Of a stretch of DNA of 43,757 nucleotides, positions 40,117 through 42,496 are shown one piece after another. Numbering within the stretch: position 1 is the stretch's first letter; each line of letters opens with the position of its first letter. The notes beneath the pieces were generated by a model. That model did no database searches. It worked only from the letters and a program-made list of their open reading frames with translations, and was not told the DNA's origin. The DNA is taken from the sequence record MT682706.1; one strand, 5' to 3'. A program made the translations under genes and the position numbers. The stretch comes from Escherichia phage vB_EcoS_FP.

Positions 40117-40481
40117 TAATGTGCGTGGCCTTATCTGGATGCTCAGCAACATCTGCGCTGACTGGTTTGATTGGCAGCAATCCAGAAATTAGCGCACAGG
40201 CTGGAGCAGAAAACAACAAGGTTGGTGTTGGGTTAACTAACAAGGTTGACTCCAGTAACTCCAGCGATGCTTCCTTTAAGGATTCTAGCGTAGGCTCTCT
40301 GGATAGCTCGAGCGGAAAAAAGACTGCTGACAATTCGATTAAGGCCTCAACAATCACTGCCGAAAAGATTGAAATTACCAATAACGAATCATCATCGCTT
40401 CCGTGGGTTGGAACAGGAGCTATGGGTCTACTGGTTTTGATTCTCCTGACCGTAATCTTAAGACGTAAAAAAGCCTCCTAA
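40092..40481 (+). CDS. unimolecular spanin (T1 gp11-like)
   Basis: Lipobox LSGC at N-terminus plus C-terminal transmembrane segment LLVLILLTVIL; overlaps endolysin end. Confidence 0.6.
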   Translation: MLKWIAALVMCVALSGCSATSALTGLIGSNPEISAQAGAENNKVGVGLTNKVDSSNSSDASFKDSSVGSLDSSSGKKTADNSIKASTITAEKIEITNNESSSLPWVGTGAMGLLVLILLTVILRRKKAS

Positions 40482-40497
40482 TGGAGGCTATATTTTT
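40467..40497. terminator. bidirectional terminator-like hairpin
   Basis: AAGCCTCCTAATGGAGGCT flanked by A-run and T-run between convergent genes. Confidence 0.55.
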
Positions 40498-40831
40498 AGC
40501 TAAATAACTCGTCGTCAGTCATTGTTCCTATATTCATCATCTCTTTTATGTACTTGCTCTGATACCCGTTAAGTGCCTCAAAGTTAAAGTCGAATGGCCT
40601 TTTCAAACTCCCATTACTAACAAACTCACCACACTTACCATCAATGTAACCAGCACTAAGCATCTTCGCGCAGAACTCCTTTGAAGCGGCGCTGCAAAAC
40701 TCTCGATGTGATAAACCAGCTGCCTTGCTGAATCTCTGAGAGTCCTTATGTTGGTAGATGAATCGCGCCAAATGCTGGCGCGTGAAGTGTGAATACGACT
40801 CGCAGAAGCGGTACAAATCCAAAATAAACAC
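40496..40831 (-). CDS. hypothetical protein (111 aa)
   Basis: ORF track; last gene of minus-strand early operon, downstream of ATPase. Confidence 0.5.
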   Translation of the reverse strand: MFILDLYRFCESYSHFTRQHLARFIYQHKDSQRFSKAAGLSHREFCSAASKEFCAKMLSAGYIDGKCGEFVSNGSLKRPFDFNFEALNGYQSKYIKEMMNIGTMTDDELFS

Positions 40832-40834
40832 TCA

Positions 40835-42418
40835 TCACCCCAATAGTCGTGGATTAATGTAAACTTTATCACCAATCAGGCACGTATAGTTTTTCTCATC
40901 AAGCATTGGCAGCAAGTGATCTTTAATCTTAGTCATTACTCCAGCTTGAGCCTCGAACGGCTTAACCTTGCGAGCCGCTTCATATAGCGAACGAATACCT
41001 ACTACTCCTTTCCCGCTCTTGCCTTGCTTAATCAGGATATCAATCAGCTTATTCATCTCGGCATTGTCGCCAGCGTGACCGGCGGCGTTAGCAGATGACA
41101 AATAAGTCTTACTCAGTTCCTGGAACATAATTACAGCCTCTTGCATGGTGTCGAGCTCGATTTCTCTGGACTTCTGTGGACTCCCACCGCTAGGGTTGAA
41201 CCAGTTACGCACAGTGTGAAGAACCGCCGCAATCCTGATTGCCTGCTTATCGAACTTACCCAGCGCGCCGCGCAACATGGTGTGGGAATACTTACCGCCG
41301 TCCGCAAGGTGAGGTTCCATCTCCTGACGAGCGCGGTTGAGATATTTCATTGCTGAATTGCTAACCGTTAGTTTTACATCCTGCTCATTCATGATTTCAT
41401 GAACAAGACGGAAGTAGTCAGCCTTCAACCCGCCATCAATTGGTTCATAAGTAGATTCGCCATTTTCATCAACAAATACACGCTCGCCCAGGAGTGACTT
41501 TTCACGTACAAGCAGGAAACGCTCAGATACACCGATACCACGAGCGCCAGCGTTCATGATAGCGTTGATTGTCTCATCCTGTGCAATTACAGAGATGCAA
41601 CCCATAGCAACAAAGCTCATATTGTTTTCTCCGTTCGCACGCGCAATGGACACGTTGCCAGCATCCCATGCCTTCAGTACAAGCTCGCTGTTCGTTTTCT
41701 TTGAGCCGTCACCATAGGTCATGCCTAATAGTGAGTTGACGCTAGTTGCCTCATCAGAGATTACAGCAAAGTTGCCCTGGCGGTTGTTGATTCGGGCCAG
41801 ACCTTCTGGTGTGGTATCGGATACAGGGAAAACGATATCACAGAGCTTTTCCAGCTTTTCCTCAAGATCCTCTTTCTCCTCAAAAAGTGAGGCCATCTCT
41901 GATGGTGACTTTTCCTGCTTCATCTCTTTGGATAATGCAGATAGTTTTGCCATGATCTTCTTGCGCTCACGCTTTCTCACTTCATTCAGCCGCTCAGTCT
42001 CAGCAATCATTGGAGCAATTGAAAGTGAGTTGATTGCTGATTTACCAGTCGATGGTGGCTGGCTTGTTACAACATAAAGCGAAGTCGGTTGCTGAGTTCC
42101 GTGATACTCAACGGTAAAGCGGCCTAGCATCGCAGCGGAAATACACCCCAGGAAGTGCATGTACGCGGACGACTCCGGGAACTGAACTGAGCGAGCAATG
42201 TTAGCTGACAGCTTACCAACAACATCAACATCATTGCCGAGTGAGATTGCGGGATACTTGTCATTTGCAGCATCAATCTCGACTGGTGCTTTCCAGAATG
42301 ATTGAGATTGGCGATAGCCATTTGCATTGATGGCTACTCGCAGTGGCGGGAGGTTGTCTGCGGCAGCAATTGCCATAACCTGTTCAACAGATAGTTTATC
42401 TTCGTTGAAGTCAAACAT
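40835..42418 (-). CDS. P-loop NTPase (possible SF3 helicase / replication initiator)
   Basis: About 527 aa from ATG 42418 (RBS GGAGAG); Walker A TSQPPSTGKS, Walker B FAVISDEATS; N- and C-terminal domains paralogous to 1162-1707. Confidence 0.7.
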   Translation of the reverse strand: MFDFNEDKLSVEQVMAIAAADNLPPLRVAINANGYRQSQSFWKAPVEIDAANDKYPAISLGNDVDVVGKLSANIARSVQFPESSAYMHFLGCISAAMLGRFTVEYHGTQQPTSLYVVTSQPPSTGKSAINSLSIAPMIAETERLNEVRKRERKKIMAKLSALSKEMKQEKSPSEMASLFEEKEDLEEKLEKLCDIVFPVSDTTPEGLARINNRQGNFAVISDEATSVNSLLGMTYGDGSKKTNSELVLKAWDAGNVSIARANGENNMSFVAMGCISVIAQDETINAIMNAGARGIGVSERFLLVREKSLLGERVFVDENGESTYEPIDGGLKADYFRLVHEIMNEQDVKLTVSNSAMKYLNRARQEMEPHLADGGKYSHTMLRGALGKFDKQAIRIAAVLHTVRNWFNPSGGSPQKSREIELDTMQEAVIMFQELSKTYLSSANAAGHAGDNAEMNKLIDILIKQGKSGKGVVGIRSLYEAARKVKPFEAQAGVMTKIKDHLLPMLDEKNYTCLIGDKVYINPRLLG

Positions 42419-42449
42419 TACTTTCTCTCCGTATTGTTTCTGAGCGGCC

Positions 42450-42496
42450 ATTATATCAACGACCGCTTATAATTCATTATCAATTTGTGCTATTTA
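42450..42496 (-). promoter_or_regulatory. phage-specific promoter-like module (minus strand) for ATPase gene
   Basis: Minus strand: AAATAGCACAAATTGATAA, 22 nt, TATAAT, with the -10 overlapping the first in-frame ATG at 42451. Confidence 0.5.

Follow-up and report, generated by a model that had tools for sequence, protein, structure and literature searches.

A short paralog of a T1 gp09-type helicase without the ATPase core in Escherichia phage vB_EcoS_FP

Why would a phage carry, in addition to its helicase gene, a second gene that keeps both ends of the encoded protein and lacks the motor between them? We studied this question in Escherichia phage vB_EcoS_FP (record MT682706.1), whose 43,757-nucleotide stretch of DNA, analysed as a whole, is called the window below. 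The phage is a T1-like siphovirus of the family Drexlerviridae, and its nearest relatives are OzMSK (~90% nucleotide identity) and the Braunvirinae phages BEK1-1, vB_EcoS-2004IV, IME253 and DTL. An original prediction, made from the sequence alone, described a 527-amino-acid (aa) minus-strand ATPase and a 181-aa plus-strand protein resembling its two termini. Replication of T1-like phages is poorly understood (the OzMSK annotation lists no DNA polymerase), and this coliphage family includes common laboratory contaminants as well as therapy candidates.

Ancestry of the short gene

Both reading frames were found as described, and the paralogy of their termini was confirmed by two significant collinear BLASTP matches. 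Residues 12–62 of the long protein aligned with residues 3–53 of the short one (69% identity, E 1e-21), and residues 476–538 with 69–131 (57% identity, E 9e-23). These positions follow the 538-aa numbering, which counts the long reading frame from an upstream ATG; the 527-aa numbering starts at position 42418. The PHROG profiles of the two families also matched each other in both directions. Residues ~51–447 of the long protein, Walker A and B motifs included, had no counterpart in the short one, so the ATPase core is wholly missing from it, as had been proposed.

In the paralogous segments, nucleotide identity was 66% at the N-terminal and 62% at the C-terminal end. The proportion of synonymous differences (pS) was 0.70 and 0.60, respectively, and the ratio of nonsynonymous to synonymous divergence (dN/dS, or omega) ~0.14 and 0.35; here and below, dN/dS comes from pairwise Nei-Gojobori counts, which are crude near synonymous saturation. 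Since synonymous sites are close to saturation, the duplication must be old and is not an assembly artefact, which agrees with the earlier reading of the locus. In addition, the DNA flanking the window junction is a single unbroken stretch in related phages.

In a tree of the shared segments, 115 short proteins grouped in a single clade that contained no helicase; their closest similarity was to helicases of the window type. By this analysis, the short gene is a derivative of the helicase gene that has a single origin and lacks the ATPase. Over its full length, the short protein belongs to phrog_7327 (E 1.9e-75), a family unannotated in PHROGs. It had no match in Pfam, NCBIfam, PADLOC or, with a profile of the short family, among PDB sequences, and a search of BFVD with its model returned only uncharacterised T1-like proteins and helicase fragments. 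The family is narrow: among 1.84 billion representatives a profile search matched only 48 proteins, namely members of the short family, Drexlerviridae-type helicases and shorter or partial proteins of either kind. The short protein matched 826 phage records, 106 of them over at least 80% of its length, and full-length copies occur in Braunvirinae, Rogunavirinae and Nouzillyvirus.

Short proteins were 1–7 percentage points closer to the helicase of their own phage than to that of the window. This is a weak signal of gene conversion, and the helicases are too alike among themselves for it to be decided. A variant of the short paralog occurs in phiEB49 (gp73; L019/L035) and in genome L020. Its winged helix is 69–70% identical to that of the phage's own helicase, its tail is different, and in phiEB49 both the short protein and the helicase carry the lineage-specific NSKGVVGLRS. 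This likeness could stem from gene conversion within the paralog pair or from slower divergence.

Composition of the two proteins

The long protein matched the Pfam family DUF3987 (PF13148) with 143.9 bits, against a cut-off of 27, over profile positions 3–349 of 364 (residues 92–441 of the 538-aa frame). It also matched phrog_2373, 'DNA helicase'. Its orthologue in OzMSK is annotated as a homologue of T1 gp09, and six close relatives, among them Rtp, DTL and IME253, have gp09 orthologues that are 96.5–98% identical to the long protein. An AlphaFold2 (AF2) model built from 43 homologues (pLDDT 90, pTM 0.87) had an MCM-type AAA+ fold, a C-terminal winged helix (WH) and an N-terminal domain of three short helices (pLDDT ~90). 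Ten residues were invariant in the alignment of the 43 homologues: Q120, P121, P122, S123, G125, K126, S221, E223, E299 and R300. The stretch S298-E299-R300-F301 as a whole was invariant or nearly so. The arginine-finger motif of MCM proteins is SRFD, which this stretch resembles by sequence.

These results allow us to assign the long gene, at the level of prediction, to the T1 gp09-type DUF3987 helicases, MCM-like AAA+ ATPases with a C-terminal WH. The protein is a helicase candidate of the MCM-like class, with unwinding itself predicted from family membership. The original prediction of an SF3-type helicase or initiator holds for the helicase candidate and fails for the class: neither SF3 families nor an SF3-type fold gave the best match, and we rejected this assignment. 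A PDB sequence search with the helicase found no significant match, and NCBIfam and PADLOC returned just a coiled-coil noise match.

The AF2 model of the short protein (pLDDT 82, pTM 0.68) consisted of a helical N-domain (residues 13–51), a canonical WH (57–125), a disordered linker and an amphipathic helix (161–178). The N-domain carries a net charge of −4, and the WH one of +7 (pI 9.9). The best structural matches of the model were the lid+WH modules of ORC2, Orc1 and Cdc6. To judge from the high pTM values, the N-domain and WH probably form a single compact unit in the AF2 models, comparable to the lid+WH module of Orc1/Cdc6.

The origin of the part behind the WH can be sought in the gene that follows the helicase. 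The helicase ends with LLG-TGA-TGA, and the T1 gp10-like gene then starts with GTG in the same frame. When the short protein was compared with related genomes by tblastn, the alignment ran through the stops and placed residues 132–161 on the first ~30 residues of the gp10-like protein. Profile-profile comparison with hhalign set residues 134–158 on gp10 residues 3–29 (P 0.013), in a collinear position. In one type of short protein the tails carry DVYKWCNAW, compared with DLYKWCESY in gp10, and the best tail/gp10 pairs had shuffle p values of 0.001–0.006. A gp10 hidden Markov model (HMM) matched 47 of 120 short proteins at residues 131–153, again in the same collinear position. Its scores did not exceed 6.8 bits and were no better than the best shuffled control, so the homology to gp10 is statistically modest. 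This counts against the fusion, which we consequently treat as likely, not proven.

Taken together, the comparisons make it quite probable that a copy of the helicase–gp10 region lost the ATPase core (codons ~51–447) along with the two intervening stop codons. Residues 132–158 of the short protein would then probably derive from the first ~25 residues of gp10. We strongly infer that the short protein is a three-part chimera: its acidic N-domain and its basic WH come from the helicase and the third part from the start of gp10, and the protein ends with a conserved amphipathic helix. If so, its origin illustrates how accessory phage genes can be built from essential ones, here from the N-terminus and C-terminus of a helicase and the start of the next gene.

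The gp10-like protein itself has an invariant DDELF at or near its C-terminus, which recalls the acidic-aromatic interaction motifs of the SSB-tail type. Searches of NCBIfam and PADLOC with this protein gave no match.

Selection, exchange and possible role of the short gene

Across all pairs, omega was 0.014–0.036 for the helicase and 0.09–0.30 for the short gene, that is ~10-fold higher for the latter, and in a dS-matched pair the dN of the short gene was ~5-fold above that of the helicase. Along the short gene, the N-domain was the most constrained segment (omega 0.14, 71% identity), and values for the WH core and the C-terminal helix were 0.18 and 0.22 (75% identity for the helix). The two linker regions were the most variable, with omega up to 0.49; as this was the maximum, no segment exceeded 1 and positive selection was not detected in these pooled Nei-Gojobori counts near saturation. 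An unusually low dS (0.64) was noted at the 3′ end of the gene. Compared with the helicase of the same phage, the N-domain of the short protein was 64–79% identical and its WH from 26% (e4/1c) to 70% (phiEB49 type). The WH of the short protein would have been freer to drift than its N-domain.

The reading frame of the short gene was broken in 5 of the 17 alleles read, a sample consisting mostly of cultured isolates. The OzMSK allele has stops at codons 37 and 138, those of DTL and vB_EcoS-2004IV each have one at codon 141, that of the IMG/VR genome L018 has one at about codon 37, and that of IME542 is frameshifted. The gene is absent from T1, and in Rtp it is reduced to a 19-aa stub, MFDFTEEKLTDEQVMRIVE, after which an unrelated lipoprotein gene follows.

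A few details of these alleles deserve mention. The stop-bearing genes of OzMSK (L002, 1093–1638), DTL (L004, 8671–9195) and genome L008 (8001–8528) appear in the annotation either in fragments or as a 140-aa protein. The stops of DTL and vB_EcoS-2004IV (TAG and TGA) are different codons in practically one position, immediately ahead of the conserved C-terminal helix. Beyond its stop, the DTL gene is 100% identical to the window at the protein level. In Rtp (L034, 1064–1383), the annotated 19-aa rtp2 is the remnant N-terminus of the short paralog (MFDFTEEKLTDEQVMRIVE*), and the lipoprotein gene rtp3 has replaced the rest.

Broken alleles, the Rtp stub and the ~10-fold higher omega are what one would expect if the short reading frame were a functionless leftover of a segmental duplication in the process of being lost. 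We consider this very unlikely. Omega is low (0.12–0.30) despite nearly saturated synonymous sites, and the family comprises more than 120 clusters of nearly constant length. It also shares 18 invariant residues and three conserved modules, among them a C-terminal helix to which nothing in the helicase corresponds. Translational coupling to the preceding gene (see below) is conserved as well. By these measures, the short gene appears functional and is under purifying selection. Broken and missing alleles together with purifying selection mean that it is dispensable for plaque formation, yet maintained in nature. The claim that both copies are under purifying selection can therefore be kept, qualified for the short gene by its higher omega, its horizontal exchange and its broken alleles.

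The exchange becomes apparent when the gene is considered along with its upstream neighbour, which encodes a DUF7174 protein. The short protein of the window was 51–86% identical to those of five close relatives (the sixth, Rtp, has only the stub). DUF7174 was 33–39% identical in five relatives, for which identity of most flanking genes is ~90%, and 94% (OzMSK) and 82% identical in the two relatives whose short allele is closest. For most genome pairs, dS of the short gene was ~3 times that of the helicase. This covariation and the elevated dS indicate that DUF7174 and the short gene form an exchangeable cassette. DUF7174 itself has no characterised relatives; it is present in 207 phage records, more than the short paralog, for instance in Rtp beside the stub. 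A PDB sequence search, NCBIfam and PADLOC gave no significant match for it.

The short gene comes second in the rightward early operon. DUF7174 stops with a TAA that overlaps the ATG of the short gene (TAATG), an arrangement that is conserved, and an AGGAG lies 8 nt upstream of this ATG; the short gene is thus predicted to be translationally coupled to DUF7174. The helicase is gene 6 of the leftward operon, which ends with a bidirectional terminator at 40472–40489. The two genes were expected to lie in divergent early operons flanking a control region, about 3 kb apart. They do lie in divergent operons on either side of the window junction, and the distance from start to start is ~2.5 kb. In related phages the rightward operon also holds a polynucleotide kinase (Pnk) and a Stp-like counter-defence gene, and on this basis we regard it as an accessory early region.

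What might the short protein do? The reading we prefer, and hold tentatively, is that of a non-essential competitive modulator, without catalysis, of helicase loading or partner recruitment. It shares the N-domain and WH with the helicase and lacks the ATPase, which is the structure of a truncated competitor of the OBPC type (see the last section). The protein would be made early, coupled to DUF7174. It would be unable to hydrolyse ATP and is without the AAA+ core that MCM-type rings use for assembly, and it would still display the best-conserved part of the helicase, the N-domain, and a WH. It could then take up a partner or DNA site used by the N/WH module of the helicase. Loading or partner recruitment would thereby be modulated, probably restrained or timed, as an accessory and not a core replication function. 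Since the N-domain is the most constrained part of the short protein and the closest to the helicase, the ligand of the helicase N-domain is what it would most likely bind.

Several points weigh against this modulator reading. While the helicase WH is nearly invariant, identity to it falls to 26–70% in the short proteins, which speaks against the idea that every allele competes strictly for one and the same WH ligand. The packing of the N-domain and WH in the helicase is read from pTM alone. A role in host conflict, or an accessory one, would account no less well for the cassette exchange and the frequent loss.

The same basic WH (pI 9.9) and the same structural matches to ORC2/Orc1/Cdc6 modules would also suit a positive adaptor or loader, although we find such a role rather unlikely. 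The WH would read a site in the phage DNA and the N-domain recruit the helicase or a partner, perhaps with DUF7174, in the manner of WH factors of the Cdc6/Cdt1/WhiP type; the cassette alleles would represent different site specificities. A conserved N-domain with a variable WH agrees with this, as do the covariation of modules with DUF7174 and the position of the gene next to a control region with clustered TGTAGGAA repeats and an AT-rich tract. Those repeats, however, lie in DNA that is conserved across differing cassette alleles. Moreover, the gene is broken in viable isolates, deleted in Rtp and absent from T1, and viable null alleles mean that the short protein cannot be an essential initiator. 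A bolder version, to which we assign only a slim chance, makes the short protein a dedicated loading or targeting factor that, with DUF7174, chooses through its helicase-copied WH where the helicase or a partner is deposited. If true, a bacterial virus would have arrived independently at the logic of Cdc6/Cdt1/WhiP by duplicating a gene of its own, and the cassette alleles would act as interchangeable specificities.

The variability of the cassette raises yet another possibility, namely a gene of conflict: an early accessory factor against host immunity, for instance a decoy for a sensor of the helicase N/WH surface, or a poison of helicase loading in co-infecting T1-like phages, with the cassette diversity reflecting an arms race. 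The two genes are hypervariable within genomes that are ~90% identical, and the ~3-fold higher dS indicates allele exchange. The gene stands at the head of an early operon that contains Pnk and Stp-like counter-defence genes in relatives, and it is often lost in cultured isolates. Replication proteins are known to trigger bacterial immune sensors (PMC13581612). Even so, this role seems improbable to us. No segment has omega above 1 (maximum 0.49) and PADLOC gave no match. A decoy should keep mimicking the near-invariant helicase WH, yet identity to it drops to 26%. Finally, the helicases of rival phages are 97–98% identical to the phage's own, so that discrimination between self and non-self is hard to see.

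The copy without a motor marks the N-terminal helical domain and the WH as an independent module of the helicase and offers a ready probe for their partners. If the short protein modulates or targets helicase loading, it would give an experimental handle on initiation in a large coliphage family. If it is a conflict gene, a core replication protein would have been copied for competition between phage and host or between phages.

Other features of the region and known systems

The coordinates of the genes and their parts are collected in Table 1. We placed the helicase start at 42418, the second in-frame ATG, as had been proposed. This M1 is invariant in homologues and has a GGAG 9 nt before it, and only in this window does a 1-nt insertion bring the upstream ATG at 42451 into frame. 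The sigma-70 promoter proposed to have its −10 box at the helicase start was not confirmed: the consensus scan found none there, and TATAAT lies in the loop of a conserved hairpin. The stem of this hairpin (42443–42467) changes from C-G to A-T in a compensatory manner in OzMSK and from T.G to C-G in BEK1-1, and its predicted RNA fold has −18.5 kcal/mol (z −2.3). IME253 and e4/1c have unrelated hairpins in the equivalent position upstream of the helicase. This suggests that the hairpin may be a conserved element of RNA-level control or processing, instead of or besides a promoter. In both early regions, the number of sites in the sigma-70 consensus scan was not above that of shuffled sequence; the promoter-like site at 572–600 precedes the operon of DUF7174 and the short paralog.

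Table 1. Features of the helicase gene, the short paralog gene and their surroundings (window positions)
Feature	Position	Strand	Remark
Helicase gene, 527 aa + TGA stop	40835..42418	-	T1 gp09-type DUF3987 / MCM-like AAA+ helicase (predicted)
Helicase N-terminal helical domain, aa 1-50, net charge -3	42269..42418	-	paralogous to short-protein residues 3-53
DUF3987 ATPase core	41129..42178	-	whole region without counterpart in short paralog
Walker A QPPSTGKS, aa 120-127	42038-42061	-	inside ATPase core
Walker B FAVISDE, aa 217-223	within 41744-41773	-	inside ATPase core
SERF arginine-finger-like motif	within 41510-41533	-	inside ATPase core
Helicase C-terminal WH, aa 448-527, net charge +4, pI 9.3	40838..41077	-	paralogous to short-protein residues 54-131
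Conserved hairpin directly ahead of helicase ribosome-binding site, loop carries TGATATAAT	42443..42467	-	compensatory changes, RNA fold
T1 gp10-like gene, 111 aa, phrog_2794	40496..40831	-	directly downstream of helicase
Promoter-like site: TTGATA, 17-nt spacer, TACCAT + upstream TG	572..600	+	consensus scan only
DUF7174 gene, 173 aa, first gene of rightward early operon	641..1162	+	Pfam DUF7174, E 2.6e-52
Short paralog gene, 181 aa, phrog_7327	1162..1707	+	
Short paralog N-domain	1168-1320	+	counterpart of helicase N-domain
Short paralog WH	1321-1554	+	counterpart of helicase WH
Short paralog gp10-like linker	1555-1641	+	resembles start of gp10
Short paralog conserved C-terminal amphipathic helix	1636-1704	+	without helicase counterpart

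The intergenic control region (43696 through the junction to 640) has a cluster of TGTAGGAA at 405–441, made up of two copies that form a palindrome and a third in direct orientation; the whole window has 4 copies, compared with 1.1 expected. The cluster adjoins a (TTA)n / AT-rich palindrome at ~322–362, and the DNA around it stays conserved across differing cassette alleles. It could be an operator or an origin-like element.

Two intergenic elements after early genes, at 1698–1780 and 2212–2282, reappear elsewhere between the genes of relatives with 75–93% identity. They may be shared promoter or terminator boxes and also recombination joints for the mosaic early region. An Rfam scan of the whole window revealed a single tRNA gene at 4244–4318 on the plus strand (55 bits) and nothing else; related phages annotate tRNA-Arg at the matching place.

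What was known already is the helicase family and, unannotated, phrog_7327; new, as far as the literature search reached, is the descent of the short family from the helicase. In the searchable literature we found no paper on DUF7174, on the paralog pair in T1-like phages or on the derivation of phrog_7327 from a helicase.

The family of the long protein, DUF3987, has been placed in SF6 as a distant relation of MCM that carries a winged helix at its C-terminus (Kazlauskas et al. 2016, PMC4889955). AgaPH, a distant member, is a demonstrated 5′–3′ helicase that needs its Walker motifs (PMC11724360), and helicase biochemistry in the DUF3987 group comes from this distant member and not from the T1-type protein. 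The long protein is a full-length member, with Walker A and B, SERF, an MCM-like AAA+ fold and a WH. It differs in having no fused or adjacent primase (the OzMSK annotation lists a DnaG-type primase, a T1 gp24 homologue, elsewhere), and in place of PriCT its N-terminus forms a small helical domain found specifically in Drexlerviridae. The protein is an unexceptional representative of a known family, for which experiments exist solely on a distant member.

For the short protein, the likeness to the lid+WH module of Orc1, Cdc6 and ORC2 is one of fold. Sequence identity is just 10–14%, so that homology at the sequence level is not supported, and the helical part of the short protein is the N-terminal domain of the helicase and not an AAA+ lid as in Orc1/Cdc6. 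WhiP is an archaeal initiator factor that consists of WH domains only.

In function, the nearest precedents are shortened viral initiators or helicases that have lost catalysis. Examples are OBPC (UL8.5) of HSV-1 with respect to the origin-binding helicase UL9, A* of phiX174 with respect to A, and E8^E2 of papillomaviruses with respect to E2. As in the short paralog, the shorter protein keeps a DNA- or partner-binding part without the catalytic or activating one, and such forms are thought to be competitors. However, OBPC, A* and E8^E2 are nested in-frame products of one gene, whereas the short paralog is a separate, old and diverged gene on the opposite strand. It also keeps both termini of the helicase, while OBPC-type forms keep only the C-terminus, and it appears in addition to be a chimera with the downstream gene.

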